Below, piece after piece: positions 10,449 to 61,496 of a DNA stretch of 64,000 bases. Numbering within the stretch: the first letter of the stretch is position 1; each line of letters opens with the position of its first letter. The translations under genes and the position numbers were made by a program. The notes below the pieces were generated by a model that saw only the letters and a list, made by a program, of their open reading frames with translations, made no database searches and was not told where the DNA came from. Origin of the DNA: Deltaproteobacteria bacterium (GTDB lineage: Bacteria; Desulfobacterota; Desulfarculia; JACQYL01); the NCBI GenBank assembly GCA_016208165.1, contig JACQYL010000001.1, positions 8,099 to 72,098 of the forward strand. Reading direction: 5' to 3'.

Positions 10449-11735
10449 ATGGACTCGACCGTGTCGTCTCGATTGTATGAACATGCGCTTCGGATCATAC
10501 CCGGCGGGGTGAATTCCCCGGTGAGAGCCTGTCGGTCCGTGGGACGCGATCCGTTGTTTATACGAAGAGCCAAAGGCTCGAAAATCTACGATGCCGACGG
10601 AAGGGAATATCTGGACTTTGTGGCTTCCTGGGGGCCTATGGTCCTGGGGCACGCGGATGATCGAGTGGTAGCCGCCATCAAGGACGCCGCCGTGAACGGA
10701 ACGAGCTTCGGCGCTCCCACCGAGCTGGAAGTGAAGATGGCCCAAACCATTGTCGATGCGGTGCCCTCCGTGGAGATGGTTCGCATGGTGAATTCCGGAA
10801 CGGAAGCCACCATGAGCGCCATACGATTGGCTCGAGGATATACGGGGCGCGATCTGGTGGTCAAATTCGACGGCTGCTACCACGGTCATGCGGATGGGCT
10901 TCTGGTCAAAGCCGGTTCGGGTCTGGCGACGTTCGGGATACCCGGTAGTCCCGGAGTTCCCGACGATGTCTGCAAAAACACGCTTTCTCTGCCCTACAAC
11001 GACACAGCCGCCTTCGAAGCGTGCATGCGACAAGCCGGGGCGCGGATTGCGGCCGTCATTGTCGAGCCCATTGCAGGAAACATGGGCGTTGTACCTCCTG
11101 CGGACGGCTTCCTGGAAACGCTGCGCCGCCATACTCGGGAAACGGGCGCGCTGCTGATTTTCGATGAAGTGATCACCGGATTCAGGGTCGGATGGGGCGG
11201 GGCCCAGGAGCGCTTCGGTATCCGTCCCGATTTGACATGCCTGGGCAAGATCATCGGCGGAGGGCTGCCGGTCGGCGCCTTCGGGGGTCGCCAAGAGATC
11301 ATGCGTCGCATGGCGCCCGAGGGGGACATCTATCAAGCGGGTACTCTTTCCGGAAATCCGTTGGCCATGGCGGCCGGTCTGGCCACTCTGGACGTTCTGA
11401 TGGGTGCGGATGTGTATGAAACGCTGGATAGAAAGAGCACCCTGTTTTGGAACGGAATGAAGGAGTGCGTGAAAGAGGCGGGCATTCCCGCTGTTGTGAA
11501 CGCCGTGGGATCCATGGGCGCGCTCTTCTTTACCAGTGATCCTGTAACCGACTTCGTCGGCGCCATGCGTAGCGATAGGGAACGGTTTGCGCGTTACTAC
11601 AGCCTCATGTTGGACCGAGGGGTGTATTTGGCGCCGTCCGCTTACGAGGCCTCGTTTATCTCGATGGCTCACTGCGAATCGGACTTGGAAAGAGCGTGGG
11701 ATGCGTTTCGGGATTCCTTACGGCGACTAAGTTAA
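10449..11735 (+). CDS. hemL: glutamate-1-semialdehyde 2,1-aminomutase
   Basis: 428 aa. Contains GGVNSPVRA, class-III aminotransferase motifs and the PLP Lys region (LTCLGKIIGGGLPVGAFGG). Full-length HemL. Confidence 0.95.
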   Translation: MDSTVSSRLYEHALRIIPGGVNSPVRACRSVGRDPLFIRRAKGSKIYDADGREYLDFVASWGPMVLGHADDRVVAAIKDAAVNGTSFGAPTELEVKMAQTIVDAVPSVEMVRMVNSGTEATMSAIRLARGYTGRDLVVKFDGCYHGHADGLLVKAGSGLATFGIPGSPGVPDDVCKNTLSLPYNDTAAFEACMRQAGARIAAVIVEPIAGNMGVVPPADGFLETLRRHTRETGALLIFDEVITGFRVGWGGAQERFGIRPDLTCLGKIIGGGLPVGAFGGRQEIMRRMAPEGDIYQAGTLSGNPLAMAAGLATLDVLMGADVYETLDRKSTLFWNGMKECVKEAGIPAVVNAVGSMGALFFTSDPVTDFVGAMRSDRERFARYYSLMLDRGVYLAPSAYEASFISMAHCESDLERAWDAFRDSLRRLS

Positions 11736-11753
11736 ATAAAACAAAAAAAGAGG

Positions 11754-11782
11754 TTGACACCTCTGAAAAGGCCGTGATAGAA
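11754..11782 (+). promoter_or_regulatory. possible sigma-70-type promoter for the atp operon (TTGACA -35, TAGAAC/ATAGAA -10 with 17-18 bp spacer)
   Basis: A TTGACA hexamer lies at 11754-11759 in the hemL-atpZ intergenic region, with a -10-like element 17-18 bp downstream. This is pattern match only. Confidence 0.3.
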
Positions 11783-11810
11783 CTCGAAAGCTCTTAATAT
11801 CGCCGGACCG

Positions 11811-12101
11811 ATGGGGGCGCGAATGGCCTTCTTTAAGGGACAGCGGCCGGAGTATATCAGGCTATTGGCCATGGCCAGCTCCATGGGAATTTCAATCGTT
11901 CTGGCCACGGTCATCGGTCTGGGCGTCGGGTATTACCTGGATAACCACGTATTTGGCACATCACCGTGGCTCACGCTGATTTTCCTTATATTGGGAATCA
12001 TAGCGGGCTTCAGAAACATTTACATTATTGGAAAACGAGCACAGGAGAGAGAAAACAAACTCGACAAACGAAACTCGACAGGTACGGCGTCTAAAGATTA
12101 A
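11811..12101 (+). CDS. AtpZ-like small membrane protein (putative F0F1-ATPase-associated subunit)
   Basis: 96 aa with two predicted TM helices, first gene of the atp F0 cluster. Size and position match AtpZ/AtpI-associated proteins. Confidence 0.55.
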   Translation: MGARMAFFKGQRPEYIRLLAMASSMGISIVLATVIGLGVGYYLDNHVFGTSPWLTLIFLILGIIAGFRNIYIIGKRAQERENKLDKRNSTGTASKD

Positions 12102-13697: not shown

Positions 13698-14330
13698 ATG
13701 AAATACGCGAAAATACCTGGAGCCACGATCACGCGTCTCTCCATGTACTCTCGTGTACTCGAGCGTATCGCACAAGAGGACGTACGGATTGTCTCTTCAG
13801 AGCGGCTGGCCACGCTGTGTGAAGTGAATCCGGCCCAGATCAGGAAAGACTTGTCCTACTTCGGCGAATTCGGGGTCCGGGGAGTGGGTTATTACGTGAA
13901 AGAGCTGCTTTTCGAAATAAAACGCATTCTTGGGCTGAACCGGGAATGGAAAATGGGCATCGTCGGGGTAGGGAACCTCGGTCTTGCTCTGCTGTCCCAC
14001 GAAAACTTCTCCAGACAGGGCTACATCTTTATGGCGGCGTTTGACAACGACCCCCAGAAGATTTCGAAAAAGCTGCCGAACGGCCTGGTCATTCACCATG
14101 TCAACGAGCTTTCACTGGTCGCCAAGGACACGGGCCTCGAGATCGGAGTGATCGCCACTCCCGCCAACTGGGCTCAGGATATTGCCAACCGCTTCATCAA
14201 AGCCAATGTGCCCGCCATCCTGAACTTTGCGCCTACCCAAATTCACGTTCCTGAAGGTTTCCAGGTGGAAAACGTCGACTTCACGGTCAAGCTCGACAAC
14301 CTGGCCTATCATCTTTCTTCCAAGGGCTGA
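13698..14330 (+). CDS. rex: redox-sensing transcriptional repressor Rex
   Basis: An N-terminal winged helix (ATITRLSMYSRVLERI) plus a Rossmann NAD(H)-binding motif (GIVGVGNLGLALL). Length 210 aa, typical of Rex. Confidence 0.9.
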   Translation: MKYAKIPGATITRLSMYSRVLERIAQEDVRIVSSERLATLCEVNPAQIRKDLSYFGEFGVRGVGYYVKELLFEIKRILGLNREWKMGIVGVGNLGLALLSHENFSRQGYIFMAAFDNDPQKISKKLPNGLVIHHVNELSLVAKDTGLEIGVIATPANWAQDIANRFIKANVPAILNFAPTQIHVPEGFQVENVDFTVKLDNLAYHLSSKG

Positions 14331-14620
14331 TACGGTCCCTGGACACCGGCGGACGCCACCCGTTCCATCGGCGCTCTCCTGCCCGGAATTCCGTATAAAA
14401 AAGAAACAGTTCATTCCGGCGGCCGTATAAGAATTACGCGGTTCCCCAAGCGGCGGTTTACGTCAAGAGGTCGGACAAGCCCAAACTTGTCTTGTAATAT
14501 CAGACTGTTTCCTCATATCTTGAGTTCGGTCATACTCCTGGCACAAACAATGCTTATATTTCATTATAAGAAGGTGTCATAAGACATGACATCATAAACC
14601 CAAACTCAGGGAGATGCGAA

Positions 14621-15112
14621 ATGAAAAGAAGAATACAATGGGGAACCTTAGGATTGATCATGGGCTTCCTATCCATGTTAAGCGTACCGGTGTATGCGGG
14701 TTTCGGACACGGGCCCATTCACACGCGTGGTCCCATGTACGGTGACATCGCCGATTTCGAACTCGTGACCTTCAATGCGACGGTGGATTACGTTCAACCT
14801 CCTGTCATGGTAGTCACCGACGAGCAGACCGTACAGTGGACGATCTATGCGGGCAACGTGCTTTACTGGCAGGATCGGGGCTATGATATGGAAGTGGGTG
14901 ACTCCATAACCGTCACCGGCGCCAGCCTCATGTACGGTACGGGCGTTGGTGGAGGAGGCGGAATGCACGGTGGAGGCGGATTCCCATCGGATGGAGCCTC
15001 ATCCCACTTTGTGGTGTTTTCCATTGATGATCATACGACGGGCCAGAGTATGCAGTTCAGGAATCCGGATACGGGCGCTCCTATGTGGGGCCATTTCGGT
15101 CCGCAACAATAA
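14621..15112 (+). CDS. secreted hypothetical protein with signal peptide and Gly-rich segment
   Basis: N-terminal signal peptide (MKRRIQWGTLGLIMGFLSMLSVPVYA), a GGGGGMHGGGG tract and no recognisable domain. AGGGAG lies upstream of the ATG. Confidence 0.5.
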   Translation: MKRRIQWGTLGLIMGFLSMLSVPVYAGFGHGPIHTRGPMYGDIADFELVTFNATVDYVQPPVMVVTDEQTVQWTIYAGNVLYWQDRGYDMEVGDSITVTGASLMYGTGVGGGGGMHGGGGFPSDGASSHFVVFSIDDHTTGQSMQFRNPDTGAPMWGHFGPQQ

Positions 15113-15202
15113 GCCGTGTTTTCGGGGAAGAGGAATATCTTCCCCGAATCTTCCCCGACCAACGCCCTACGGCTCCCATGAGGGCAAACCCGGAGGAACA
15201 GC

Positions 15203-15448
15203 ATGAACGCGAAGAAGTTGTATACTCCAAGAGACCCGGTGTGCGGGAGGGATGTCTTCGGAGTGTATCCAACGGCAATCTACGAGGGTAAAATGTACTT
15301 TTTCTGCAGTGAGGCCTGCGAAAAACGCTTTTCAACAGACCCCGAAAGTTTTGTAAGGAGAAAAGGCGTGTTTCGTCGCTTCATGGATCGTTTGGCGGAG
15401 AAAAACGCCGAAAATCCGCCGAAGTGCGGATGCGATTGTTGTCACTGA
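15203..15448 (+). CDS. YHS/TRASH-type metal-binding domain protein with Cys-rich C-terminus
   Basis: Reads DPVCGRDV...YFFCSEACEKRF, a YHS-like metal-binding motif. The C-terminus is CGCDCCH. 81 aa. Confidence 0.6.
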   Translation: MNAKKLYTPRDPVCGRDVFGVYPTAIYEGKMYFFCSEACEKRFSTDPESFVRRKGVFRRFMDRLAEKNAENPPKCGCDCCH

Positions 15449-15778
15449 TCCTGTTCTATGGTATCTTACAAAAGTGGCCCTCCCTCAGAGGGCTACTGAC
15501 TGCTTTGAGGCGCCTTTAAATGGCGGATTCCTTCCCTATGGAGCGGCTCACAATTCTCCTCCACGGAATCCCTGAGGTTTCAGGTCTCTGAATATCGATT
15601 GAGCCGCACTGAATGAATTCTCCATCCCTCATCCCGGCGCCTCCCGGAAACCGTATGGGGTTTCCGACTCCACACAAAAGGCTTGAGAAATCGAGGCCTT
15701 GCTTCTTGTTGTAAGAATCGGCATTCAAGCTCGAAGATAAGCCGGCTTTCGGCCGGCGGTCTAATACCGGAACCGACG

Positions 15779-22603: not shown

Positions 22604-24508
22604 GTGCTTATTGTGGCGAATAGTCTCCAACAACGTTTGATGTTTTTCGTGCTGATTCCGATTGCGTTTCTGCTGTTTCTGATAGGAAGCATCGGCTTTC
22701 TGTACGCGCGAAACACCATGCTTTCAGAATGGCGGGAAGCCGCCGTTTTGAAGCTTCAACGGGGCGCTCACCAGATGGATATGAGGTTGAGCCGGCCTCT
22801 GGAATGGATACGGATGTTCCAGCAGTCCGGCGAGCTGCTCCAGACATCGATTCAGGATTGGCTCATTTCCCGGCTGCAACAACTCGGGGGAGTGGAAAGC
22901 GCCCATATCGAATGGTTCCCTGAGTACGGGGGCGCAGGTGGTACTTCAGGGGATCACATGGGTGCGGGAACGGGCAAGGACATGAATACGGACATGAAGC
23001 CGTTTCAGGAGGGTGGAGTTGCCCGAATAACCCCGCCAAAATTGGATTCCACCACCGGTAAGAAAACGGTGACCATCGAGTCGAACTTACTGGATAGGGA
23101 CAACCGGACCGTGGGTCAGCTTCAAGTGATCATCAGCTTCGAGTATCTGCTGGAGGGTGTGCTCTCTTCGAGTTGGACCGAAGGAGACAAGGCCTGCCTG
23201 GTCGACGAAAATGGCGCTTATCTGGCTCATACGGCCGCCATCGACGCGGGCCGGCGTCGTCTGGGCGGCGCCGGCGATTCCTTGGAATTAGCCATTTTGG
23301 AGGCCCTGAAAGACCGGCCGTTCGGGACGGTACTAGGCCGTGGACATCCTCCCGGCGAGGTGGCAGGGTTCTGCAGGCTGCAAAATGCCCCATGGACCAT
23401 CGTCGTATTTGCTCCAGGGGATAAAATTCTTGGGCCCATCGTACGATTTCGTACCTATTTCTTCGGCTTCGGAATTATTTGTATCGGCATCGTGCTGATG
23501 CTCATAAGACTGACAACCGCGGGAACGGTCCGCTCGATCCAGGAGATCTCCGCTTCCGCAAAGCAGGTCGCCTCGGGAGACTACGGAAGAACGCTTTCCG
23601 TCAGAAGTCGAGACGAGGTGGGGCAACTGACCAGGAGCTTTAACACCATGATCGCGGAGTTGAGGCAAAAGGAACGGATTCGCAATATGTTCGGACGCTA
23701 CGTGGACAAGGAGGTGGCCGAGGAACTGCTTCGGGGGCCGGAATCGACCCGGCTGGGAGGAGAAAAGCGCGAGGTGGTGATCCTGATGTCCGATTTGCGG
23801 GGGTTCACGCCACTGTGTGAGGCCATGAGTCCGGAAATTGTAATCGGGGTCCTGAATCGCTATTTTTCATATATTATCGGAATCATCCATCGATACAAAG
23901 GTATTATCATCGATTTTGTTGGGGATGCCGTCCTCGTCTTTTTCGACCCGATAACCTCGACCGTCGACGAGAAGGCCAAGGATGCGGTGCAATGCGGTCT
24001 TGAAATGCAGTCCGCCATGGAACGGGTCAACGACGAAAATCAGGGGCTCGGAATACCCCGGTTGAGCATGGGGATCGGGATCCACTCCGGCGAGGTGATC
24101 GTGGGAAACATAGGGTCCCAGTCCAGAGCCAAGTACGGCATTGTGGGCGCGCCCGTGAACCTCACGCAACGGATCCAGTCCGTTGCGGAAGGGGGGGAAG
24201 TGGTGGTCTCCGAATCGGTTCGCCGGCGAACCGGGGAAGCTTTCCGGGTTCTCCGTAGCTTCAAGACCCGGCTCAAAGGAGTGCACGATCAAGTAACCCT
24301 ACACGTTGTCGATGGATCGGTAGAAGTGGGCCATTCACGAGACGGTGGGGAACATCCCGTTCAACATGATCACAGGCCTCCGGAGAGAGACGGACAAAAG
24401 AAATCCTCTGTCCTCGAAGGGGGGAAGGATCAAGAACGGTTTCAGCAGGCGGATCGAAGGGATCCTGTTCCTTCTCCCCGTCGAGGACAGGGAGAAGGAA
24501 CAGGATGA
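22604..24508 (+). CDS. membrane-anchored class III adenylate/guanylate cyclase with periplasmic sensor and HAMP domain; C-terminal ~70 aa low-complexity tail
   Basis: TM1 (FFVLIPIAFLLFLIGSIGFLYA), a periplasmic region, TM2 (FFGFGIICIGIVLMLI), HAMP (VRSIQEISASAKQVASGDYGRTLSV...LTRSFNTMI) and a cyclase domain (VVILMSDLRGFT...DFVGDAVLVFF...GIHSGEVIVGNIGS...GIVGAPVNLTQR). GTG start at 22604; an alternative ATG lies at 22640. Confidence 0.8.
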   Translation: MLIVANSLQQRLMFFVLIPIAFLLFLIGSIGFLYARNTMLSEWREAAVLKLQRGAHQMDMRLSRPLEWIRMFQQSGELLQTSIQDWLISRLQQLGGVESAHIEWFPEYGGAGGTSGDHMGAGTGKDMNTDMKPFQEGGVARITPPKLDSTTGKKTVTIESNLLDRDNRTVGQLQVIISFEYLLEGVLSSSWTEGDKACLVDENGAYLAHTAAIDAGRRRLGGAGDSLELAILEALKDRPFGTVLGRGHPPGEVAGFCRLQNAPWTIVVFAPGDKILGPIVRFRTYFFGFGIICIGIVLMLIRLTTAGTVRSIQEISASAKQVASGDYGRTLSVRSRDEVGQLTRSFNTMIAELRQKERIRNMFGRYVDKEVAEELLRGPESTRLGGEKREVVILMSDLRGFTPLCEAMSPEIVIGVLNRYFSYIIGIIHRYKGIIIDFVGDAVLVFFDPITSTVDEKAKDAVQCGLEMQSAMERVNDENQGLGIPRLSMGIGIHSGEVIVGNIGSQSRAKYGIVGAPVNLTQRIQSVAEGGEVVVSESVRRRTGEAFRVLRSFKTRLKGVHDQVTLHVVDGSVEVGHSRDGGEHPVQHDHRPPERDGQKKSSVLEGGKDQERFQQADRRDPVPSPRRGQGEGTG

Positions 24509-34877: not shown

Positions 34878-35640
34878 TCCGGGATCATGATCGACAAAAC
34901 CAACATCATCGCAGCGTTGCTGGAGAGATTGGACAACACGCCCATGGGGCATCATCCGGATATCCGGCCGTATAAAAGAAACTGATCGGTCGTGGTCGTG
35001 CGAAGGACCGAAACGGTTTATGAAATCATTGAAGAAGGATTCTTCTGCGACCGTTTTTCCGTGGAGGCCTCCGGGTTGAAGAAAAGCCTGCGGGTAATGA
35101 TCAAAAAGGAGTTTCCGCGAAGCCACAAAATATGGGTGTACGCCATGGAGCCGTATCCGCAGGAAGAACCGCACGGCACGGAGAGAAAGAAGATTTGAGG
35201 ATTGTTTCACAGATGGTCCGCTTGGGGCCACGGAAAGAGAGGCTGTTGGGTAAGCTAGAGAATCGGAAAGAAGTCAACATGCGGGCTTGCCCCCCGACAC
35301 AGTCCTCTCTCGATAAAATGATATGATTCCGACCTCCTTCCGGGAATTCTTTCCAGAAAGTCCTAAGCTTGCTTCTCTTGGCTTTTCTGGCTATAAATAT
35401 CGACGAATACGGGCTAATAATACAGCAAGGCCTTTTGCATAAACTCTTCATTAGGTTAGGAGCGTCATCGGGGGCAGCGAAGTAAGGAAGATCGTCCTTC
35501 TTGAAGTGATGCGATGTTCAAGGCGGGTACTCTGAAAAGACTGAACAATCTGTTCATCTACCGGGAGCGAATCGCCAAAAAGCTGTTTGTCTCGGAACTC
35601 TGTTACAACCGATCCCTTTAATAGAGCCAGGGGAACGCAC

Positions 35641-36816
35641 ATGAATCGATTTGAAAACCTTCAAGAATTAGAAATAGACACTGAATCGGCATGCTCCGAT
35701 TCCGCCCCAGAAGACGGTGGTGTTGAACCCGAGGAAGTGGAGGGAGACGAGCCCATAACACAGCCCTTCGATCCCACAAAGACGCAGATCATCACTTCAT
35801 GGCCGACGGTTAGCCTCTTGGTGACGAGGATACAAGAGGGAGAAATCGATCTGTTCCCAAGTTTTCAGAGAAAGGCGGACCTCTGGTCGCCAGCCCAGAA
35901 AAGTCGCCTGATAGAATCATTACTGCTTCGCATGCCCCTGCCCTCTTTCTATTTCGACGCCACTGACGACGAAAACTGGGTCGTAGTGGATGGACTGCAG
36001 CGTCTTTGGACGTTACAGGAGTTTCTCCTAAGCGACATGAGGCTTCATCACCTCGAGTTTTTGATTAATTACGAAAATAGCATGTTCAAAGACTTACCCC
36101 GACACCTGCAGAGACGTATCGGAGAGACGCAGGTCGTTGCGCATCTCATTCAGCCGGGCACACCACCCCAGGTAAAGTTTAACATATTTAGGCGAATCAA
36201 CACGGGTGGATTAGTTCTCTCGGCCCAAGAGATCAGGCACGCACTGAATCAAGGGAATGCACCCCAATTCCTAAAGAAACTCGCGTGCTCGAAGGCTTTC
36301 TTAGAGGCGACCCAAGGGAGCGTGCGCCCCGATCGTATGGAAGATCAGGAATTTGTACTTCGTTTCATGGCTTTCACGATCGTTCCGTACCCTCAATATA
36401 AGGTAGCAGATCTTGATGGGTTTCTGCATGAACAAATGGCTAGATTGAACACCGTCGGAAATGATGAGCTCGAAGACCTAGAGGTGAGATTTCAACGGGC
36501 TATGAGAGCATCAAGGCTGATCTTTGGAAGACAGGCCTTCAGGAAAAGCCTTAGGGATGGGGTTTCGGCCTGGAGAAATCCCATCAACAAGGCCATCTTT
36601 GAGGTCTGGTCCGTCACTCTGGGCCAACTCACTGAAGATAAATTAGAACATTTAATCCACCGAAAAGATGACGTCATCAGTAGATTTATTGAGGTTTTGA
36701 ACACTAATGACGAGTTTGTCGCCGCGGTATCTCAAGGAACTGGGGACGTAAAGAAAGTGAAGCAGCGGTTTAAAACCGTTGCCAAACTTGTAGAGGATAT
36801 CCTCAATGCAAACTAA
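35641..36816 (+). CDS. DUF262 (ParB/Srx-fold, GmrSD N-terminal-like) domain protein; no fused DUF1524/HNH domain
   Basis: Reads IDLFPSFQRKADLWSPAQKSRLIESLLLRMPLPSFYF...VVDGLQRL, the DGQQR-type motif, then a ~250-aa alpha-rich C-terminal region. Its 3' end overlaps the next gene by 11 nt. GC is lower than the flanks. Confidence 0.8.
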   Translation: MNRFENLQELEIDTESACSDSAPEDGGVEPEEVEGDEPITQPFDPTKTQIITSWPTVSLLVTRIQEGEIDLFPSFQRKADLWSPAQKSRLIESLLLRMPLPSFYFDATDDENWVVVDGLQRLWTLQEFLLSDMRLHHLEFLINYENSMFKDLPRHLQRRIGETQVVAHLIQPGTPPQVKFNIFRRINTGGLVLSAQEIRHALNQGNAPQFLKKLACSKAFLEATQGSVRPDRMEDQEFVLRFMAFTIVPYPQYKVADLDGFLHEQMARLNTVGNDELEDLEVRFQRAMRASRLIFGRQAFRKSLRDGVSAWRNPINKAIFEVWSVTLGQLTEDKLEHLIHRKDDVISRFIEVLNTNDEFVAAVSQGTGDVKKVKQRFKTVAKLVEDILNAN

Positions 36817-37927
36817 TCACCTGCAGGCCATCCATCTAATGAATTTTAAGTGCTTCGAAGACCAGAAGGTTTCGCTTGCTCCGATTACCCTCCTCACAGG
36901 TCTCAACGGCATGGGTAAGTCAACAGTATTACAGAGCTTGTTGCTGCTTCGACAATCGGCCATGCGGAACGTGTTGGAACACTATGGTTTGCTACTGAAC
37001 GGCGATTTGGTGAATCTGGGCAGGGCAGGCGATGTGCTGTTCGAAGGTGCTCGAGACGAGCATATTGTTCTTGAATTGACCGTTGGCGGGATGCAGGAGT
37101 CCTGGAAATTCAGGTATGAGGATCCCCATGCGGACGTGCTGATGCTGGAAGAGGGACCAAAGGTCTTGCCTGAATGGGTGGTTTTCGGCAATCGATTCCA
37201 TTATTTGGCGGCTGAGCGCATGGGGCCACGAGAAATCTACGAGATCTCTGCCTACTATGTTCGCAAATTGCGACAATTGGGCGCAGATGGGCGATTCGCG
37301 GTGGCCTATCTTGAAGAATACGGAAAAAGCCTGCGGTGCCTCCAAGGGTTGCTGCATCCGAAAACCTCTGACTCGACGGAGGAAAATCTTTATTCACAGG
37401 TTAACTTGTGGCTGGGAGAAATCAGTCCTGGTGCGCGATTGGAACCGATTTCCTTCCCGGACATAGGCAAGACTTCGTTGAGGGTTTCCTTTCCTTCTTC
37501 TACCAAGGGGCTAATGTCCAGACCATATTCGACGCCCAATGTCGGCTTCGGTTTCAGTTATACGCTCCCGGTTCTTGTGGCCGTTCTGTCGTCTTCTTCA
37601 GGAGATTTGGTTCTCATGGAAAATCCGGAGGCACATCTGCATCCGCAGGGACAAGTGGCGTTGGGGCGACTGTTCGCACTCGCCGCGTCTGGCGGGATAC
37701 AACTCATTGTGGAGACTCACAGTGATCATATACTGAACGGAGTACGCGTAGAAGTGAGGGATGGTTGTATTGCCAGCGAGGATGTGCGCATTCATTTTTT
37801 CCAACGGAACCAGCCTGGTGGGCAGCATTTTGTGGAGTCTCCTCGGGTGGATAAGGATGGACGAATCGATAACTGGCCGGAAGGATTTTTCGATCAAACA
37901 GAGCGTCTCCTAATGGAATTGATTTAA
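36806..37927 (+). CDS. ABC/OLD-type ATPase (AAA_15/AAA_21-like N-terminal core with DUF3696-like C-terminus)
   Basis: Walker A LTGLNGMGKSTVLQSL. Walker B plus D-loop DLVLMENPEAHLHPQGQ. H-loop IVETHSDHILNG. A C-terminal tail (DGRIDNWPEGFFDQ). Confidence 0.8.
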   Translation: MQTNHLQAIHLMNFKCFEDQKVSLAPITLLTGLNGMGKSTVLQSLLLLRQSAMRNVLEHYGLLLNGDLVNLGRAGDVLFEGARDEHIVLELTVGGMQESWKFRYEDPHADVLMLEEGPKVLPEWVVFGNRFHYLAAERMGPREIYEISAYYVRKLRQLGADGRFAVAYLEEYGKSLRCLQGLLHPKTSDSTEENLYSQVNLWLGEISPGARLEPISFPDIGKTSLRVSFPSSTKGLMSRPYSTPNVGFGFSYTLPVLVAVLSSSSGDLVLMENPEAHLHPQGQVALGRLFALAASGGIQLIVETHSDHILNGVRVEVRDGCIASEDVRIHFFQRNQPGGQHFVESPRVDKDGRIDNWPEGFFDQTERLLMELI

Positions 37928-52787: not shown

Positions 52788-53852
52788 TCAGGGTTCCAAA
52801 TTCAGCGAAGAGGCATGCTTGCGATAGAGCCCCCGGAACTGGTGGTAGGTGAGGCCCAGAAGCTCGGCCGCTTTATGCTGGCGGAAGCGGGCCTCGAGGA
52901 GGGCCCGCTGAATCAGTCGAATTTCAAGATCGGCCACCTGCCGGGTCAACGGGGTGTCCAGGGCTAGGGCGGGTTCAAGCGGAGACTGGACCGCCGAATC
53001 AGCGGTCTGGCTCTGTTCGGAAGGGGGCGCCAAAACGGATTCAGGGAACGGATCGAAGACGATTTCTTTAATGGATTCAGAGTCGGATCGGTAAACGGCG
53101 CGTTCCACTACGTTCTTGAGTTCGCGTACATTTCCGGGCCAGGAATAGGCCTCAAGGGAGATCATGGCCTCTCGAGTGAACACCGGCAGGGCGTCGTGTC
53201 CCAATTCCTTTGCGATGCGCGAAGCGAAGTGACGCGCGAGAAGAGACACATCTCCCGCCCTGTTCCTGAGCGCCGGCAACAGCAGTACTTCAAAGGAGAG
53301 CCGGTCGAGGAGGTCGCGTTTGAACCGGCCTTCGCGCGCCAGGGCCGGCAAGTCCGCATTGGTGGCCCCGATGATGCGGACATCGACCATTACGACGTCC
53401 GACCCTCCAACCCGTTCAAAAGTGCCGTATTCCACGACGCGAAGAATTTTCTCCTGGGCTTCAAGGGGAATATTGCCGATTTCGTCGAGGAAAAGCGTAC
53501 CCCCGTGAGCGGCCTCGAAGCGCCCTATTCTTCGTTTGACGGCGCCGGTAAACGCCCCCGGCTCATACCCGAAGAGCTCGGATTCGATGAGGCCCGGAGA
53601 GAGGGCCGCGCAATTCAGAGCAAGCAGGGGACTCCTCCAACGGTGGGAAAGATAATGGAGACGGGAGGCGGCCAGTTCCTTACCGGTTCCTCTTTCTCCG
53701 ATGATGAGGATTGGGCGGTCCACACGTGCGGCCCGAGATAGACGCTCCTGGAAATCCAGAAAGGATTCCGACTCACCAAGGCCTTCCTGGGAAGCGAGGG
53801 CGGGCATGTCGGTCTGGTTGCGAGTGAAGGATGACATGGTGTATATTACCAT
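52788..53852 (-). CDS. pspF: sigma-54-dependent transcriptional activator PspF (AAA+ domain plus C-terminal HTH, no receiver domain)
   Basis: Walker A GERGTGKELAASRLH. GAFTGA motif (FGYEPGAFTGA). Arg finger region. C-terminal HTH KAAELLGLTYHQFRGLYRKH. It is divergent from pspABC. Confidence 0.85.
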   Translation of the reverse strand: MVIYTMSSFTRNQTDMPALASQEGLGESESFLDFQERLSRAARVDRPILIIGERGTGKELAASRLHYLSHRWRSPLLALNCAALSPGLIESELFGYEPGAFTGAVKRRIGRFEAAHGGTLFLDEIGNIPLEAQEKILRVVEYGTFERVGGSDVVMVDVRIIGATNADLPALAREGRFKRDLLDRLSFEVLLLPALRNRAGDVSLLARHFASRIAKELGHDALPVFTREAMISLEAYSWPGNVRELKNVVERAVYRSDSESIKEIVFDPFPESVLAPPSEQSQTADSAVQSPLEPALALDTPLTRQVADLEIRLIQRALLEARFRQHKAAELLGLTYHQFRGLYRKHASSLNLEP

Positions 53853-53968
53853 ATATAGGCTAAAATAGCCAGTATTTTGCTAAAACAGCCGGATTACGTT
53901 CAGCCGGCGGGTCTCTGATTCACGTACAACTCGTTGATATTGCTTAGCTAGTATGGATTTTGCCCAAG

Positions 53969-53985
53969 TTGGCCCGGTTGTTGCC
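53969..53985 (+). promoter_or_regulatory. sigma-54 (-24/-12) promoter for pspA: TTGGCCCGGTTGTTGCC
   Basis: GG-N10-GC spacing with a TGGC...TTGC core, ~40 nt upstream of the pspA ATG, in the pspF-pspA divergent intergenic region. Confidence 0.6.
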
Positions 53986-54023
53986 CACTTTCATGGCAAC
54001 CAAGCCACAAGAGAGGTGACATC

Positions 54024-54707
54024 ATGGGCGTTTTCAGCAGAGTTCGAGATATCGTGAGTTCAAACATCAATGCCATGCTGGACCGGGCGGAAGACCCGGA
54101 GAAGCTGGTCCGGCTCATGATCCAGGAGATGGAGGACACCCTGGTGGAAATCAAAGCCTCGTGCGCAGGGGCTATGGCAGCCAAAAAACAAACGCAGCGG
54201 GCTTTGGAAGACCACCGGGAGCGGACCCGTTCGTGGGAGCAGAGGGCGGAGCTGGCCGTTGGAAAGGGGCGCGAGGACCTGGCCAGAGAGGCGTTGCTGG
54301 AAAAACGCCGGTACCTGCAGCGCGCGGAGACCCTGGAGGACGAAATGGGTCAGACGCAGGCCATCATTGCCCAATACCAGGAACAGATCGCCCAGCTCGA
54401 GGAGAAGCTGGCCACGGCCAGAGAAAAGCAGCGTCTGCTCGTTCAGCGACACGTTCATGCCCGTGATCGGAAACGAGCCCAGGAAGACATTCGGCGCTTC
54501 GAAACTTCCGATGTGTTCCTGAGGTTCGAGCAGTTCGAGAACCGCATCGAGCGCATGGAAGCCGAGGCGGAGATGGTCAATCTCGGTCGCACTCCGTCGC
54601 TGGACGACGAGTTTGCCCGTTTAGCGGAAGGCGAAGAGATCGAGCGAGAACTCGAGACGTTGAAAGCCAAATGTGGACGAAGGGGCGAAGAACACCGACC
54701 GATGTGA
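54024..54707 (+). CDS. pspA: phage shock protein A
   Basis: Reads MGVFSRVRDIVSSNINAMLDRAEDPEKLVRLMIQEMEDTLVEIKAS..., the PspA/IM30 N-terminus, then a long coiled coil. AGAGAGG lies upstream. Confidence 0.9.
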   Translation: MGVFSRVRDIVSSNINAMLDRAEDPEKLVRLMIQEMEDTLVEIKASCAGAMAAKKQTQRALEDHRERTRSWEQRAELAVGKGREDLAREALLEKRRYLQRAETLEDEMGQTQAIIAQYQEQIAQLEEKLATAREKQRLLVQRHVHARDRKRAQEDIRRFETSDVFLRFEQFENRIERMEAEAEMVNLGRTPSLDDEFARLAEGEEIERELETLKAKCGRRGEEHRPM

Positions 54708-54754
54708 TCGGGATGAAACGGACAAAGCTGAGTTGATCTGCATATGGAGGAAAG

Positions 54755-55000
54755 ATGAGTGAGGTTCTGTTGGCCTTCGTGCTGATCCTGGGTCTGCCCG
54801 TCCTGATCGTGGCGGGATTCTTCCTGATTTGGGTTTTGAAAATCCTCACACGTGGGGGCCCGCATAAGCGAGATGAGGCTCAAGCCGAGGAAACCCGTTT
54901 GATCCAGGAACTCCACCAGGGCCTTTTGAAGATGGAGGAGCGCATCGAGGCCCTGGAAACGATCTTGCTCGATGCGGAAAAAAAGGAAGATCGAAAATGA
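54755..55000 (+). CDS. pspB: phage shock protein B
   Basis: 81 aa with a single TM (LLAFVLILGLPVLIVAGFFLIWVL) and the C-terminal EERIEALETILLD. Its position is between pspA and pspC. Confidence 0.8.
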   Translation: MSEVLLAFVLILGLPVLIVAGFFLIWVLKILTRGGPHKRDEAQAEETRLIQELHQGLLKMEERIEALETILLDAEKKEDRK

Positions 55001-55401
55001 ATAGAGCGAACGAGAGATCGAGAACCGGTTTGTACCGTTCGCGGCGCGGTGTGATTTTAGGCGTTTGTCGCGGAGTGGCGGACTACTTCGACATATCCGT
55101 ATTCTGGACCCGCGTCGTGTTCGTTGCCGTACTGCTGTTTACAGGCATTTGGCCTATAGCAGGGCTGTATCTGGTGGCCGCCGCATTGATGAAGCCGGAG
55201 CCGGTGGTTCCGTTTCGAACGGAAGTCGATAGGGAGTTCTATAATTCGTATACGGCTTCCCGAGAATTGGGCCTTCATCGTTTGAAAGGCGCCTTCGACC
55301 GGCTCGACCGGCGATTGCGACGCATGGAAGACCTGGTGACCGCTCGGGAGTTCGACTGGGATCGTAGGTTCAGGGGTCCGGATTCGGGTAGAGGTCGATG
55401 A
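54997..55401 (+). CDS. pspC: phage shock protein C
   Basis: Reads LYRSRRGVILGVCRGVADYFDISVFWTRVVFVAVLLF, the PspC domain. Its start overlaps the pspB stop (ATGA). Confidence 0.8.
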   Translation: MNRANERSRTGLYRSRRGVILGVCRGVADYFDISVFWTRVVFVAVLLFTGIWPIAGLYLVAAALMKPEPVVPFRTEVDREFYNSYTASRELGLHRLKGAFDRLDRRLRRMEDLVTAREFDWDRRFRGPDSGRGR

Positions 55402-56200: not shown

Positions 56201-57805
56201 TCAGATACCGAAGATTTCTCGTATTCCGAACAGCAATTTGTCTCTGATCGACGCCTCTTTCCTCCCTCCGGTCAGCGCTTTGAGCCGGACCGATTCGCTC
56301 TCCATATATTTTTGGTCGGACAGCTCGACCGCGCGTTCTTTCTCCGCAAGGCGCGTCGCCAACACAGAACTGATGTTTTCCGCAAGAGCGGGATGGCTCT
56401 TGATGATGTGTTGAAAACTCTTCCTATGTAAGACAAATACTTCGCAATCCGTTTCGGCCGTCACGGTTGCCGAGCGCTTTTCTCCGGTCAGGACGGAAAG
56501 CTCTCCGAAAAAGTTTCCGGCAGTGAGACAGGCTATTCGAGTCCGTTGCTTCTGCGATGAATCCGCATACACCTCCACGCTTCCCGATCCGACGATGTAA
56601 AAGGATTCTCCATCGTCACCTTGCCTGATCAGGGTTTCCCCCTGGGAATAGTACTCGACGTACACTTCGCCGCTCAAGAACCGGAAATCATCATCGCTGA
56701 GGGGGGACAGGAAGTCGATGGATCGAAGTATCTTTTCAACGGCGCTCTTTCTTTCTTCCGGGGTGACTTCGGGTTGCACCCGCACGTCACGAACGGGATA
56801 AGGAATTTTGATGCCGTTCCGCTTAAATTGATACCAGATCCGGCGAAATACCTTATCTTCTATGGCGCGAACCCTATCGTAATCGGTGATCCAAAAACGA
56901 AGCTGGTAAACGATCGCGAAGTCGCCGTATTCAATCAAAAACACGGTGGGAGGGGGGGTCTTCTGGACTTCATCGATACCGAGAGCGCTCTGTATCAAAA
57001 CGGCGGCCGCTTGATTCGGCGGGTGATCGTACGAAACGCCGATGTTCTTTCTGCAAAGATGACTTCTCCAGGGAGCGGAGTAGTTGACAAGGCTCGATTT
57101 CGCAATCGCGTTGTTCGGAACAACGATCATGTCCTCGGATCGGTCCACGAGTTTGACCGAACGCCAGTTGATTTCAATCACCCTGCATTCTTTGCCTTCG
57201 ACGAGCACCCAGTCTCCTATCTTGAAGGGATTGTCCATCTGAATGGACAATCCGGCGAACAGATTTCCAAGCGTATCCTGGAGCGCCAAGCCGATGATCA
57301 GAGAAAATATGGCCGAGGTAGTGAGCAACGAGGTGAAATTGACATTGAAATAGACTCCCAGAAGCCAGATAACAATGATGAGATATAGAATGACTTTGCC
57401 GCTGTCCCGAACCAAAGCGGGTATTTTATGTTTGGACGGTCGACGTCGATAGTGCGCTTCCAGAAAAAGACTCACGGTCCCAATGGCGATATAAACGGAT
57501 ATCACCGCCAGAAGGATCTGTACTAAGGTCGGAACATGACCGGTGTACCCCTGCAGGAAGAAGGCTAGGTGGATGCTCGCCAAAATAGTGGCTATGTGCA
57601 CGACGGACAAGAACCTTCGGTTGGTGGTCTTGAACTGGTCCCACACGTCTTTGAACACCGCTGGAAGAATACGCCTCGTCAGAACCAGCGTCAGGATACG
57701 AACCAGAAGATAGAAGAGGACGCCGCAACCCACGGATAGCGCCATTTGCTCCAGAGCGTTCAGGTTTGAATAGAACGCTCGAATCGATGTTATATAAGGC
57801 TTCAA
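56201..57805 (-). CDS. mechanosensitive ion channel (MscS family) with C-terminal cyclic-nucleotide-binding domain
   Basis: N-terminal TM helices. MscS core (ALQDTLGNLFAGLSIQMDNPFKIGDWV...VPNNAIAKSSLVNYS). cNMP-binding domain (GETLIRQGDDGESFYIVGSGSVEV...FFGELSVLTGEKRSATVTA). Confidence 0.85.
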   Translation of the reverse strand: MKPYITSIRAFYSNLNALEQMALSVGCGVLFYLLVRILTLVLTRRILPAVFKDVWDQFKTTNRRFLSVVHIATILASIHLAFFLQGYTGHVPTLVQILLAVISVYIAIGTVSLFLEAHYRRRPSKHKIPALVRDSGKVILYLIIVIWLLGVYFNVNFTSLLTTSAIFSLIIGLALQDTLGNLFAGLSIQMDNPFKIGDWVLVEGKECRVIEINWRSVKLVDRSEDMIVVPNNAIAKSSLVNYSAPWRSHLCRKNIGVSYDHPPNQAAAVLIQSALGIDEVQKTPPPTVFLIEYGDFAIVYQLRFWITDYDRVRAIEDKVFRRIWYQFKRNGIKIPYPVRDVRVQPEVTPEERKSAVEKILRSIDFLSPLSDDDFRFLSGEVYVEYYSQGETLIRQGDDGESFYIVGSGSVEVYADSSQKQRTRIACLTAGNFFGELSVLTGEKRSATVTAETDCEVFVLHRKSFQHIIKSHPALAENISSVLATRLAEKERAVELSDQKYMESESVRLKALTGGRKEASIRDKLLFGIREIFGI

Positions 57806-58291: not shown

Positions 58292-58555
58292 ATGGCTAAG
58301 CATTCTCATGATTTTGTTGAAACGTACGTTGATCTGGTCGGATTCGGTATGGATCGGGAAATAGACGAAGCCACGGTTATCGTCATGCTGCAGAAACTCT
58401 CGGATGACGCGCTCATGGATCTGTTGCGGCATCGTCTTTCCGACGAGGAACTGAAGGACTTGTTCGAGATGGTCTCAAATTTGCTGAAAGAACACTTGTC
58501 CGAGGAAGAATACCATACGTTTTTTTTGAAGGACCGGGAGGAGGAGTCCCTCTGA
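58292..58555 (+). CDS. hypothetical small acidic protein
   Basis: 88 aa, helical and acidic (MAKHSHDFVETYVDLVGFG...LSDEELKDLFEMV). No recognised domain. Confidence 0.35.
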   Translation: MAKHSHDFVETYVDLVGFGMDREIDEATVIVMLQKLSDDALMDLLRHRLSDEELKDLFEMVSNLLKEHLSEEEYHTFFLKDREEESL

Positions 58556-59188
58556 ACGCATGCATTCCCGTTTTTTCCCGCCGGGATCATCTCCTTCGTT
58601 CAGCGTCGGCTGTCAGAACTCCATGGGTTTGGCGGATAACTTGTCAATCGTTTGACACACGGATAAAATATGAACAGAAGACGGGTAAGATGAGCAATGG
58701 CCGTATAGGAATACAGGATTGTTCTTCGATGAACGGGAAAGAAAAGAGGTTTCTTTTTTCCAGGAGCATCTCCGGTAAAGGTCCGTTCACAGGACGAGAA
58801 GCAAGGTGATGCCTGAGGTCTGTTCAGAGGGTCGAAATCGGCGTCTATTCGAGTTCTCCTGCAGCCCTCGTTCAGCCCACCGACGAGGGCCGGCAGGTCC
58901 CGTAAGGGCGGGTTTGAAACCCGCTCCCAGATCATGATCCGCCTTCACTTTTTCGGACGCGGGTAACCCTTGGTTCCCCTCCAATCAGGATGAGGCGGGG
59001 CGTGAGGAACTGTCGTAGTACGAGCCGGTCTCAGTATCAGACCATTCTTGGGATATCCGGGAGGTGTCGTGTTGGCGGGGCGACGGATTGGCGCATTTCA
59101 AAAGAGGCTTTCGAGCGAGCCTATTGGCACATAAATTGCTCGGTTTAGGGAAAAGCATGTTCCACGCGCCCGATAGACAAGTAAGAAA

Positions 59189-61018
59189 ATGGTGAATAAG
59201 ACCATGACACTCAGTCATATTATCCAAGAGGCGAACCGGAAGCTTGAAACCGAAAGGGACGAACTGGTCAAGGTCGCCAAGGCCGAAAAATACCGGGGTA
59301 CCGTTGATGAAATCATGGAATTCCTGGATCAATACGACGGCCATTTTCAAGACACCAATGTCCAGGTGGTGAAGGCGGCTTTGGAAACGTTTCTCAGACG
59401 TCTTTCTCCCCCTGCGCTTAAACTGACGATGGCTTCCATGAAGCGCCAGGTAGGTATACAACTGGGCTCGGCAACCCAGGAGCCCTCCAATTCAGCTTCC
59501 GGAGGTGGCTCAGTGATCTCTCAAAGCGATATCGACGCTCTGCTCAAGGGGGCCAACGCTTCCGAGGAATCTACAAGCGCTTTCGAACAATCAGAGATCG
59601 ACGCGCTTCTCGGGGAGATTGAGGAACTTGGCCCGCAGTCAGGGAAAAGGCCTTCGGGCACACCGGCGAAAAAGCCGTTGGAAAGGTCTCCCCAAGCATC
59701 CACCGATCTGGGAGATCCAGACTTGATCGTGGATCAATCCGCCATTGATGCGCTTCTTGCCGGAGTAAAAGAGGACGCGAGCGCCAAAAGAACGGCCGGT
59801 ACGCCTTTGGTTGCGAAGAAAACGCCCGGCAAGAGCGTTGGACACGAATCCCGCACAACGGAACGTCCGTTTTTTGAGGAAGAAATAGTCAGTCAAACGG
59901 ACATCGACGCCCTTCTTTCTCAGGGGATGGTGTCCAAAAAAGAAATCGGCGTGGAGGCGGAAAGAGCGCTGGATCCTTCGCTGGTGGAGGAACTGCTGGC
60001 GCAGATTCAAACGGATGCGAAGCCTGAAGAATCAGCGGTGGTGGAAGACGCATCGGACCTCTCTCCCGAGACGGGATTTCCGACATCAGAGGATACGAAT
60101 ATAGATCAATCCTCCATCGACGCTCTTTTTTCGCAGGAAGCGGGGTCGCAGAAAGCACTCGAGGCCGAGGCCCAGGCGGCGCTGGATCAGACTTCCGTGG
60201 AGGAGCTGCTGGCGCAGATTGAAACGGATGCGAAGCCTGAAGAATCAGCGGTGGTGGAAGACGCATCGGACCTCTCTCCCGAGACGGGATTTTCGTCGTC
60301 GGAGGATACGAATATAGTTCAATCCTCCATCGATGCTCTTTTTTCGCAGGAAGCGGCGCCGGAAGAAAAGGACCAACTTGCCGATAGGGATTCATGGCTC
60401 GTCAATGGAACATCCGGTATAGAGGAAGCAGAAGCTCTGCTCGCGCCCGAAGGAGGGCCGATGCAGGCTTTCCCGGAAGAGGAGATGCCGGCCGCCGGAG
60501 AGGCGGCTTCCCCGGAATCTGCGGAGATTCCCATGGCTCCGGATCTGGAAGCAGGCGACGTGCCGTTGGAGATTGAATTACCGCTTATTGAACCCGTGCC
60601 CGATCAGCAGCGTGTGGTGGACGCCATCGTCGAGGCTACACGGAAAAAAGTGTCACAGAATCTTCCGCCCGCCGGCAAGAATCAACCCTCGCCCGGTGAG
60701 CATGTCCAGGGCGCAGTCGTCGGCAAGGAGGCTGCATTCCGTTCGCAAGACATAGGCAGGGAGCGCATTTTAGAAGAAAGAGGCGAGGCGAAAGTGCTGG
60801 ACACCTTCTATCGGATCTATGCCTGCGTCAACGGAAGCTATGAACTCCTATCGGAATCGAGCAGCGCGGAAGAGACGAAACAAAAACTGATGACCGCATG
60901 GATGGATCACGCAGGGAAAGATATTGTAATCAAACGTGTAACCCGAAAAGAGGTGCTGGTCATTAAAGAGGACCTCGATGACGTTCCGGTTCGCCTGGAA
61001 GTCACGTTGGATTCCTGA
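59189..61018 (+). CDS. acidic protein with six repeats of a CheY-P-binding-like motif ([ST/Q]Q[ST][DEAS]IDAL[LF]); candidate multivalent CheY-binding scaffold
   Basis: Motifs SQSDIDALL, EQSEIDALL, DQSAIDALL, SQTDIDALL, DQSSIDALF and VQSSIDALF resemble the FliM/FliY/CheC N-terminal LSQxEIDALL motif. The C-terminal ~110 aa form a globular region. A fliN-like gene follows immediately. Confidence 0.6.
   Translation: MVNKTMTLSHIIQEANRKLETERDELVKVAKAEKYRGTVDEIMEFLDQYDGHFQDTNVQVVKAALETFLRRLSPPALKLTMASMKRQVGIQLGSATQEPSNSASGGGSVISQSDIDALLKGANASEESTSAFEQSEIDALLGEIEELGPQSGKRPSGTPAKKPLERSPQASTDLGDPDLIVDQSAIDALLAGVKEDASAKRTAGTPLVAKKTPGKSVGHESRTTERPFFEEEIVSQTDIDALLSQGMVSKKEIGVEAERALDPSLVEELLAQIQTDAKPEESAVVEDASDLSPETGFPTSEDTNIDQSSIDALFSQEAGSQKALEAEAQAALDQTSVEELLAQIETDAKPEESAVVEDASDLSPETGFSSSEDTNIVQSSIDALFSQEAAPEEKDQLADRDSWLVNGTSGIEEAEALLAPEGGPMQAFPEEEMPAAGEAASPESAEIPMAPDLEAGDVPLEIELPLIEPVPDQQRVVDAIVEATRKKVSQNLPPAGKNQPSPGEHVQGAVVGKEAAFRSQDIGRERILEERGEAKVLDTFYRIYACVNGSYELLSESSSAEETKQKLMTAWMDHAGKDIVIKRVTRKEVLVIKEDLDDVPVRLEVTLDS
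59968..60363 (+). repeat. near-perfect 210-bp tandem duplication (two copies) inside the multi-motif gene
   Basis: A 60-nt stretch (gaagcctgaagaatcagcggtggtggaagacgcatcggacctctctcccgagacgggattt) is identical at ~60014-60073 and ~60224-60283. The encoded 70-aa units differ at about six residues. Confidence 0.8.
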
Positions 61019-61046
61019 ACACGAATCGATGGTAAGGGCATAGGTT

Positions 61047-61496
61047 GTGGAAGAGAACGGCGTCAATACAACGGAAATGGACGATGCCTGGGAAGCCGCC
61101 CTGCGGGAGCAGCGGGACGCAGAAGCGGGTGTAACGCCGACCCAGGCTCAGGAAGACGAGAAAAGCCCGTCTCACCCGGTCCAACAGAGGGAACAGCGGC
61201 TTGGGGACGCTCTTGCGCCGTCACCCGGTACGGCAACCGTTGGTCTGGAACTCCTATTGAGTATTCCCGTTGAGGTGAGTGTCCGCTTGGGCGAGACAAA
61301 ACTGGTGGTGAACGATCTGATGCAGCTGGGCCAAGGAAGCATTGTCGAGCTGGATAAGTTGGCCGGCGCCGATTTGGATCTGATGATCAACGATGTGGTC
61401 ATGGGAAGGGGCGAAGTGGTCGTGGTGAACGATCGCTTCGGACTGAGGGTGACGGAGATCGTTTCACCGGAGGATCGAATCAAGGGACTCGGCTAG
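61047..61496 (+). CDS. FliN/SpoA-domain protein (flagellar motor switch/T3SS SctQ C-terminal-like)
   Basis: Reads LELLLSIPVEVSVRLGETKLVVNDLMQLGQGSIVELDKLAGADLDLMINDVVMGRGEVVVVNDRFGLRVTEIV, the SpoA domain. GTG start at 61047; an alternative ATG lies at 61077. Confidence 0.75.
   Translation: MEENGVNTTEMDDAWEAALREQRDAEAGVTPTQAQEDEKSPSHPVQQREQRLGDALAPSPGTATVGLELLLSIPVEVSVRLGETKLVVNDLMQLGQGSIVELDKLAGADLDLMINDVVMGRGEVVVVNDRFGLRVTEIVSPEDRIKGLG

Follow-up and report, generated by a model that had tools for sequence, protein, structure and literature searches.

What could a gene for a FliN-type switch protein serve when it stands outside any flagellar operon, directly behind a gene for a long acidic protein with a repeated peptide? 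The question is raised by positions 59,189 to 61,496 of a 64,000-nt stretch (hereafter the window) of contig JACQYL010000001.1, which belongs to an uncultured Deltaproteobacteria bacterium of the sulfate-reducer type. The repeated peptide is the EIDAL motif, the high-affinity docking site of FliM and FliY for phosphorylated CheY (CheY-P), and the product of the upstream gene, here called the scaffold, carries six canonical copies of it. An earlier note on this DNA had seen in the pair a possible multivalent sink or scaffold for CheY-P coupled to a FliN-like oligomerization module. We find that the motif is specifically conserved and that the array is linked to, and in one protein fused with, a distinct subclade of FliN, and we tentatively favor a scaffold that would capture several CheY-P at or beside the flagellar motor. 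The elements of the two genes are as follows.

59189-61018, + strand: multi-EIDAL scaffold gene, an open reading frame (ORF) of 609 amino acids (aa), annotated by NCBI as hypothetical protein HY788_00325
59210-59467, + strand: N-terminal four-helix domain, aa 8-93 (AlphaFold2 helices 8-32, 35-49, 55-71, and 74-93; predicted local distance difference test score, pLDDT, of 56-85)
59513-59545, + strand: EIDAL motif 1, VISQSDIDALL, predicted helix 112-123 (AlphaFold2)
59579-59611, + strand: EIDAL motif 2, AFEQSEIDALL, predicted helix 130-147 (AlphaFold2)
59726-59758, + strand: EIDAL motif 3, IVDQSAIDALL, predicted helix 183-191 (AlphaFold2)
59885-59917, + strand: EIDAL motif 4, IVSQTDIDALL, predicted helix 236-245 (AlphaFold2)
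60098-60130, + strand: EIDAL motif 5, NIDQSSIDALF, pattern match
60311-60343, + strand: EIDAL motif 6, NIVQSSIDALF, pattern match
60782-60964, + strand: C-terminal beta-beta-alpha-beta domain, aa 532-592 (AlphaFold2 pLDDT 93-98; alignment of 18 sequences)
61047-61496, + strand: FliN paralog gene, 149 aa, with the SpoA domain at aa 69-139 (nt 61251-61463)

The six copies that the note had described with the pattern [SQ]Q[ST]xIDAL[LF] are indeed present. The pattern Q[ST]xIDAL[LF] is found exactly six times in the scaffold (aa 109-119, 131-141, 180-190, 233-243, 304-314, and 375-385), and not once elsewhere when the whole 64-kb window is read in all six frames. Two or three degenerate copies come in addition, among which LD[PQ][ST][LS]VEELLAQI is located at aa 261-273 and 332-344 (LDPSLVEELLAQI and LDQTSVEELLAQI). 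The acidic character ascribed to the protein is borne out by 119 Asp and Glu versus 57 Lys and Arg residues, a pI of 4.34, and a pLDDT below 50 for 330 of the 609 residues, and AlphaFold2 draws the motifs as isolated helices. As modeled, the scaffold is an acidic, largely disordered protein whose motif array lies between a folded four-helix N-terminal domain and a small C-terminal domain.

A word-based search returned ten relatives of the scaffold, and an exhaustive profile search added distant ones, giving 18 representatives with the same N- and C-terminal domains. In a genome scan, this family of Thermodesulfobacteriota was found in 2 of 185,579 species representatives. Within the disordered region of the family, 14 of the 54 columns located in motifs are invariant against 6 of the 301 columns outside (17-fold, Fisher p=1.4e-8), and in motif 1 the residues S111, Q112, D114, D116, L118, and L119 are invariant among the close family. 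A motif profile made of 23 aligned instances from the scaffold family was searched against all 177,635 distinct PDB sequences, and its best match, which was also the sole one below E=0.01, is to residues 3-17 of Salmonella FliM (E=0.0064, 19.3 bits). Furthermore, when the family was compared by hhalign with 15 FliMs from Desulfobacterales, the motif alone aligned, to residues 2-20 of FliM (E=0.0021). The N-terminus of 120 Desulfobacterales FliMs reads M[SG][ED]IL[ST]Qx EVDSLLSGL, and with a position-specific scoring matrix (PSSM) of this FliM-N peptide, which replaced a 14-position FliM-N HMMER profile of unusable scores, motif copies take the top three ranks among 56,267 window positions. As judged from sequence, the scaffold motifs are the EIDAL docking peptide of FliM-N and FliY-N, of which VISQSDIDALLKG and NIDQSSIDALFSQ are the peptides named for a binding comparison. 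The note had likened them to the CheY-P-binding peptide of FliM, FliY, and CheC; the formal alignments to the FliM peptide sustain this likeness except for CheC, which, to our knowledge, does not use an EIDAL peptide.

The domains that flank the array are less familiar. The scaffold matches no Pfam or NCBIfam family, and the full-length protein gave only chance matches, to oleate hydratase, among PDB sequences. The N-terminal four-helix domain is kept in 17 of the 18 representatives, and no homolog of it was found in Pfam, NCBIfam, or PDB sequences. The C-terminal domain of about 60 residues is kept in every representative, with K587 and E588 invariant, and is followed by a conserved tail (KEDLDDVPVRLEVTLDS / KEVLVIKEDLDDVPVRLEVTLDS). 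The note had suspected a fold similar to CheC or to the FliM middle domain in the C-terminal 110 aa or so. The domain found there is instead the 60-residue beta-beta-alpha-beta unit, which has no match in Pfam, NCBIfam, or PDB sequences and no fold match in the PDB: Foldseek searches of the scaffold domains returned nothing significant (best E=0.18) and no CheC, CheX, FliM, or SpoA structure. Outside the motif, hhalign aligned nothing of the scaffold family to FliM, including its middle domain, and nothing to FliN or SpoA, and neither the FliM middle domain (PF02154), FliMN_C, nor the CheC-like family (PF04509) was matched by Pfam and NCBIfam searches at E<=1 to 10. Together, the Pfam, hhalign, and Foldseek negatives rule out a CheC or FliM-middle fold for this region.

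The same results bear on the idea that the scaffold is a degenerate or remodeled FliM, one that occupies the place of fliM ahead of fliN and has been deprived of its middle domain. The gene order does mirror fliM-fliN, the FliM-N peptide is present, and a fliL-like gene lies beside the pair at the distant locus L012. However, Pfam finds neither FliM nor FliMN_C in the protein, the hhalign comparisons are empty beyond the motif against FliM and empty against FliN, the fold of the C-terminal domain is neither SpoA nor CheC-like, and the two end domains constitute a well-conserved family in themselves. A remodeled FliM is therefore rejected on the profile, hhalign, and fold negatives, its probability being very low.

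The array also contains a tandem duplication.

59893-60318, + strand: tandem duplication, 2 x 213 nt (71 aa), units 59893-60105 and 60106-60318, 81% identity overall

In each unit, a degenerate motif (LDxxxVEELLAQI) is paired with a canonical one (QSSIDALF). The duplication noticed earlier is real; its period is nonetheless 213 nt and not 210, and "near-perfect" applies only to a core of 160 nt (59984-60143 versus 60197-60356, offset +213), which is 95% identical with 8 mismatches. The scaffold of L009, the closest relative, lacks the duplication, which is therefore a lineage-specific expansion and, as had been proposed, a recent one. Other orthologs expanded different units, P0003 and L007, for example, carrying three units of 85 aa, and the number of canonical motifs ranges from 3 to 8 across orthologs.

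The FliN paralog and the anchors of other arrays

The product of the downstream gene matches Pfam FliMN_C (PF01052, E=8.6e-23, 80.5 bits against a cutoff of 23.8) and the NCBIfam fliN model TIGR02480 (91.5 bits against a cutoff of 84.05), and the description of this gene as encoding a stand-alone SpoA-domain protein was thus correct. It starts on the same strand 28 nt after the scaffold gene, a gap earlier given as 25 nt. Assignment to SctQ of a type III secretion system (T3SS) was considered and rejected, with 50.4 bits for TIGR02551 against a cutoff of 100.8 and no T3SS genes nearby. The closest canonical FliN, P0019, sits in a fliL-fliM-fliN-fliO-fliP operon and is 63% identical over the SpoA domain, the array-linked paralogs being 58-63% identical to canonical FliN over this domain. 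They are closer to one another than to any canonical FliN and have signature substitutions in common; the paralog from L012 shares 68% identity with the window copy versus 58% with its best canonical match. In a neighbor-joining tree computed on SpoA columns, the nine array-linked FliNs are monophyletic (bootstrap 68), the eight close ones among them being grouped with a bootstrap of 93, and are nested among canonical FliNs. At its N-terminus, the window paralog has one copy of a short motif, MDDAWEAALREQR. In the L012 paralog (L012:9360-9875), this N-terminal W-x-A-A-L-x-E-Q motif is present in three copies (AQWAAALDEE, LDWDAALREQR, and IDWAAALEEQR).

A protein of 605 aa, P0270 (L014:8001-9818), unites both halves of the module: about 13 EIDAL-like motifs are fused directly to the SpoA domain of a FliN, the two end domains of the scaffold being absent, and this SpoA domain joins the clade of array-linked FliNs (bootstrap 67). 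No flagellar cluster surrounds its gene, and the next gene encodes an SLT/LysM lytic transglycosylase. Members of the FliN subclade were found only beside, or fused to, multi-EIDAL arrays. The fusion, together with the strict adjacency of the two genes elsewhere, is the best evidence in hand and suggests that scaffold and FliN paralog act together physically. The coupling of the array to a FliN-like module, as put forward in the note, gains from this fusion and from the dedicated subclade.

A plainer account would take the gene as the only fliN of its lineage, relocated beside an unrelated acidic repeat protein whose likeness to EIDAL arose by convergence, as an amphipathic acidic helix. It has in its favor that fliN lies apart from fliM in some bacteria, such as C. 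jejuni, that the motif scores are modest, and that distant members of the scaffold family have no adjoining FliN. We consider it unlikely, given the strong and motif-specific conservation, the best PDB-wide and FliM-profile matches that land exactly on the docking peptide, the fusion of motifs and SpoA in P0270, the same arrays on FliL, and the co-clustering of the partner FliNs.

The gene fliN is found directly after the scaffold gene in about eight distinct Thermodesulfobacteriota genomes, including the distant L012 (the loci are the window, L001/L016, L002, L003/L004/L017, L006, L007, L008/L009, and L012). At those with enough flanking sequence, no flagellar or T3SS neighbor was found; the earlier idea of a pair outside a bona fide flagellar or T3SS cluster thus extends to its relatives, where the surroundings are nonflagellar throughout. 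They comprise a psp operon, a mechanosensitive MscS channel with a domain for cyclic nucleotide monophosphates (cNMP), SnoaL, methylmalonyl-CoA mutase, and aspS/hisS, and in L012 POR and TonB/ABC genes together with an opposite-strand FliL paralog (Pfam 31.6 bits against a cutoff of 24.6).

Such surroundings would also suit a host without a flagellum, in which a free-standing SpoA complex would serve some other process by reading a CheY-like regulator. In no locus does the pair sit in a flagellar cluster, the partner FliNs are a clade apart, marked by signature substitutions, and among the best 120 matches per search, a depth that does not establish absence, no FliM or second FliN came from the 4.73-Mb, 3.35-Mb, 0.79-Mb, and 0.33-Mb contigs of the family. 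On the other hand, the SpoA domain has kept 58-63% identity to canonical FliN and scores above the equivalog threshold of the fliN model, the FliL paralog adjoins the pair in L012, and a methyl-accepting chemotaxis protein is encoded 10 kb from the pair in L001. A function independent of the flagellum appears quite unlikely to us.

Arrays of this kind are not peculiar to the locus but widespread, especially on FliL. A multi-EIDAL profile search returned 276 cluster representatives (50% identity) at E<=0.001, and the characterization covers the 146 newly returned ones among the 150 listed. At least three strict motifs are present in 80 of these 146, one of which has 19. About a third (46 of 146) are FliL proteins whose cytoplasmic N-terminal arm bears a multi-EIDAL array, as recognized by an iterated profile from the C-terminus of P0009 that also recovers the canonical FliL of L010 (E=5e-25). 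The FliL-type proteins P0008-P0010 carry 7-9 near-perfect [IV]SQ[SG]DIDALL motifs before the transmembrane helix, and the gene for P0009 (L005:10001-11371) belongs to a flagellar cluster, in which flhF-flhG-fliA immediately precede it. Some other representatives carry TPR domains. In the source records, these proteins are either not annotated or labeled "hypothetical". Scans of metagenomes for arrays of the FliL type brought nothing of use, and the searchable literature yielded no description of multi-copy EIDAL; where the peptide is discussed there, it is one motif belonging to FliM, FliY, or FliN. A TPR protein of 1584 aa encoded upstream in L006 was considered as a further multi-EIDAL protein and rejected, its equal length to P0275 being a coincidence.

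The Pfam CheZ profile is likewise matched by motifs of the sister multi-EIDAL proteins, at its positions 182-203 (the last 20 or so) and below the Pfam threshold; for the window scaffold itself this match was not seen. The positions in question are the C-terminal CheY-docking peptide of CheZ. The matches do not denote true CheZ domains, a candidate assignment that was rejected, since only the C-terminal peptide positions are covered and no catalytic domain is present. The CheZ-profile matches of P0278 (aa 262-282) and P0291 (aa 90-106) correspond to the motif only, and these proteins could be misannotated; P0291 is named "FliM" by JGI.

Candidate clients of the array

We tentatively favor a multivalent scaffold that would capture CheY-P, be anchored by the SpoA assembly of the FliN paralog, and act at or beside the C-ring as a local collector or buffer. 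According to published work, FliM-N is a flexible tether from which CheY is handed on to another contact, namely FliM-middle in Thermotoga or, as proposed, FliN in E. coli (PMC7355467). The module described here holds the tether, in multiplied form, and FliN, as in the tether-then-FliN model of E. coli, and a CheY-P scaffold is therefore favored. Its two genes would form an operon, sigma-54-dependent in most relatives. The folded end domains of the scaffold, or its conserved C-terminal tail, would dock onto the SpoA oligomer of the FliN paralog, and this oligomer may insert into, or sit beside, the FliM/FliN base of the flagellar C-ring. The array could then capture several CheY-P at once through the alpha4-beta5-alpha5 surface used by FliM-N, and serve either as a sink or as a concentrator next to the switch. 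We infer CheY-P as the client, binding between scaffold and FliN paralog, and a location at the flagellar motor; an association of arrays with the motor is suggested by the FliL-type proteins (46 of 146), by the one encoded inside a flagellar cluster, and by the FliL paralog beside the L012 pair.

The docking peptide has a second partner. EIDAL is also necessary and sufficient for binding and polar recruitment of FlhG, a MinD-like ATPase, as seen with the peptide of FliM in Shewanella or FliY in Bacillus. In naming CheY-P, the note was right that the motif is a CheY-P docking peptide and overlooked that FlhG docks at the same EIDAL. The array might accordingly be a trap for FlhG, scaffold and FliN paralog regulating C-ring assembly or the number or placement of flagella. 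FlhG handles FliM/FliN(Y) complexes during C-ring assembly, its ATP-bound dimer is bivalent, so that a multivalent array could cluster it, and the FliL-type multi-EIDAL gene of L005 directly follows flhF-flhG-fliA. However, no flhG lies near the pair at any scaffold-family locus, and related motifs match the C-terminal end of the CheZ profile, which is the CheY-docking peptide of CheZ, while CheZ is not known as a partner of FlhG. Furthermore, FliL-anchored arrays at finished motors would suit a signaling client better than an assembly factor. The FlhG trap is the main alternative to CheY-P capture, and we regard it as somewhat unlikely.

Several points weigh against the capture of CheY-P by the pair. 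EIDAL also binds FlhG, and the client can therefore not be told from the sequence alone. No cheY, che, or flagellar gene was found in the window or at any scaffold-family locus, and none of the best 120 FliM matches lies on the long contigs of the family. The P0318 and P0284 groups, which are the most distant members of the scaffold family, have no adjoining FliN. In addition, the absolute motif scores are modest, with 19 bits against FliM in the PDB and, with the narrow Desulfobacterales PSSM, 5 bits versus 42-49, the low PSSM value reflecting the near-invariance of the FliM-N set from Desulfobacterales.

In a broader and more doubtful proposal, to which we give little weight, multi-EIDAL arrays would be a general and so far undescribed class of multivalent client-capture scaffolds, tethered via FliL, FliN paralogs, or other anchors. 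The FliN version may then work away from the flagellar operon, and possibly from any flagellum, as a SpoA assembly that clusters CheY-P or FlhG dimers. If this were true, a high-avidity or condensate-like compartment would set the level of free CheY-P or the number of flagella.

In the literature on the switch, EIDAL is one tether per FliM or FliY subunit, whereas the arrays described here present from 6 to 19 of them along acidic arms that are disordered. If the favored CheY-P scaffold holds, arrays on motor-associated anchors would add a layer that controls the availability of CheY-P or FlhG at the motor, with a bearing on the ultrasensitivity of the switch, on the local CheY-P concentration, and on flagellar-number control. 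The scaffold family is small, unannotated, and open to direct experiment.

Upstream region and neighboring genes

Three elements precede the scaffold gene in the window.

58292-58555, + strand: conserved ORF of 87 aa, with orthologs 62-86% identical at the same position in L001, L003, L006, and L007
58641-58669, + strand: sigma-70-like promoter with an overlapping palindrome, TTGTCAAnnnnTTTGACA ... TAAAAT, invariant in 6 of 6 aligned upstream regions
59125-59140, + strand: sigma-54-type promoter TGGCACATAAATTGCT, 64 nt upstream of the scaffold start codon, 10 of 11 consensus positions

The sigma-54 element TGGCACATAAATTGCT is the top consensus match on both strands of the window. It is kept at -62 to -65 in L002, L007, L009, L003, and L017, and was not found upstream of the scaffold gene in L001, L006, and L012. 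In L013, a gene for a REC-sigma54 activator lies directly upstream of the scaffold-family gene. The palindrome at 58641-58669, TTGTCAA-n4-TTTGACA, is located between the 87-aa ORF and the scaffold gene, and a leader of 350-520 nt separates the sigma-70-like promoter from the scaffold gene. The 87-aa ORF, which is absent in L012 and has no match in Pfam, NCBIfam, or the PDB, is possibly an associated component of the scaffold locus.

Domain matches confirm the neighbors that had been recognized earlier, namely an MscS channel with a cNMP-binding domain, an NTF2-like protein (SnoaL_2), and methylmalonyl-CoA mutase (a B12-binding domain and MM_CoA_mutase). The earlier remark on a wealth of receiver domains in the window does not hold, since only two ORFs carry REC (7706-8209 and 8225-9901). 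Both belong to a sensor cluster at 3280-9901, and no receiver domain is encoded elsewhere in the window. Besides the single-domain receiver and the hybrid kinase (REC-HisKA_3-HATPase-REC), this cluster encodes a histidine kinase with PAS and a protein of 919 aa with seven PAS domains.

The psp stress operon at 52791-55398 is complete, pspA, pspB, and pspC following a minus-strand gene for a PspF-like sigma-54 activator; the promoter scan that gave the sigma-54 element of the scaffold gene also picked up a sigma-54 promoter-like site of psp at 53970, and the operon arrangement is also found in L002 and L007. At 22604-24505, the window encodes a HAMP-adenylate/guanylate cyclase, and at 56204-57805 an MscS channel with a C-terminal cyclic-nucleotide-binding domain; their presence in one window hints at cNMP-gated mechanosensitive signaling. 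Furthermore, a GmrSD_N-domain protein adjoins an AAA_15/AAA_21/DUF3696 ATPase at 35587-37924, which looks like a small anti-phage defense or restriction module. In L002 (ERZ21862645 ctg38218l), a long-read contig, genes are split or have aberrant ends, for example, at 10001-12076 and 14089-15536: the C-terminus of P0003 is divergent, and MM_CoA_mutase and tRNA synthetases are fragmented. This damage looks like assembly indel errors rather than biology.

Comparison with known systems

Among known switch components, FliY and FliN with an N-terminal EIDAL, as in B. subtilis, T. maritima, epsilonproteobacterial FliY, and some FliN, share with the pair the same docking peptide and a C-terminal SpoA domain, and the layout of P0270 matches this arrangement exactly. 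However, FliY has one motif on a single polypeptide, whereas in the window 6-8 motif copies and the SpoA domain are placed on two polypeptides. The window pair also lacks the CheC-like phosphatase domain of FliY, while the scaffold has N- and C-terminal domains of its own. Unlike FliY/FliN, the pair stands outside a flagellar operon and, in most relatives, behind its own sigma-54 promoter.

The likeness to FliM is confined to FliM-N, which has the same motif, [ILV][ILV][SD]Q x [DES] I D [AS] L [LF], helical on a disordered tether, and a FliN partner. While FliM combines a single N-terminal motif with middle and SpoA domains, the scaffold has internal repeated motifs and neither FliM domain. 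The C-terminal CheY-binding peptide of CheZ is matched by the sister multi-EIDAL proteins, which have no CheZ catalytic domain. The FliL-type arrays present the same motif arrays on an anchor associated with the flagellar motor. This anchor is a transmembrane FliL domain on the same polypeptide, whereas the window uses a separate FliN paralog outside flagellar clusters. Canonical FliN, finally, is encoded in an operon with fliM and fliO/fliP, in contrast with the FliN paralog, which has no flagellar genes around it either in the window or at 8 orthologous loci. Taken together, the pair, which belongs to a wider unannotated class of multi-EIDAL arrays, appears best filed as a multi-copy, two-polypeptide variant of the EIDAL-plus-SpoA arrangement of FliY/FliN, with its own domains and its own FliN subclade.

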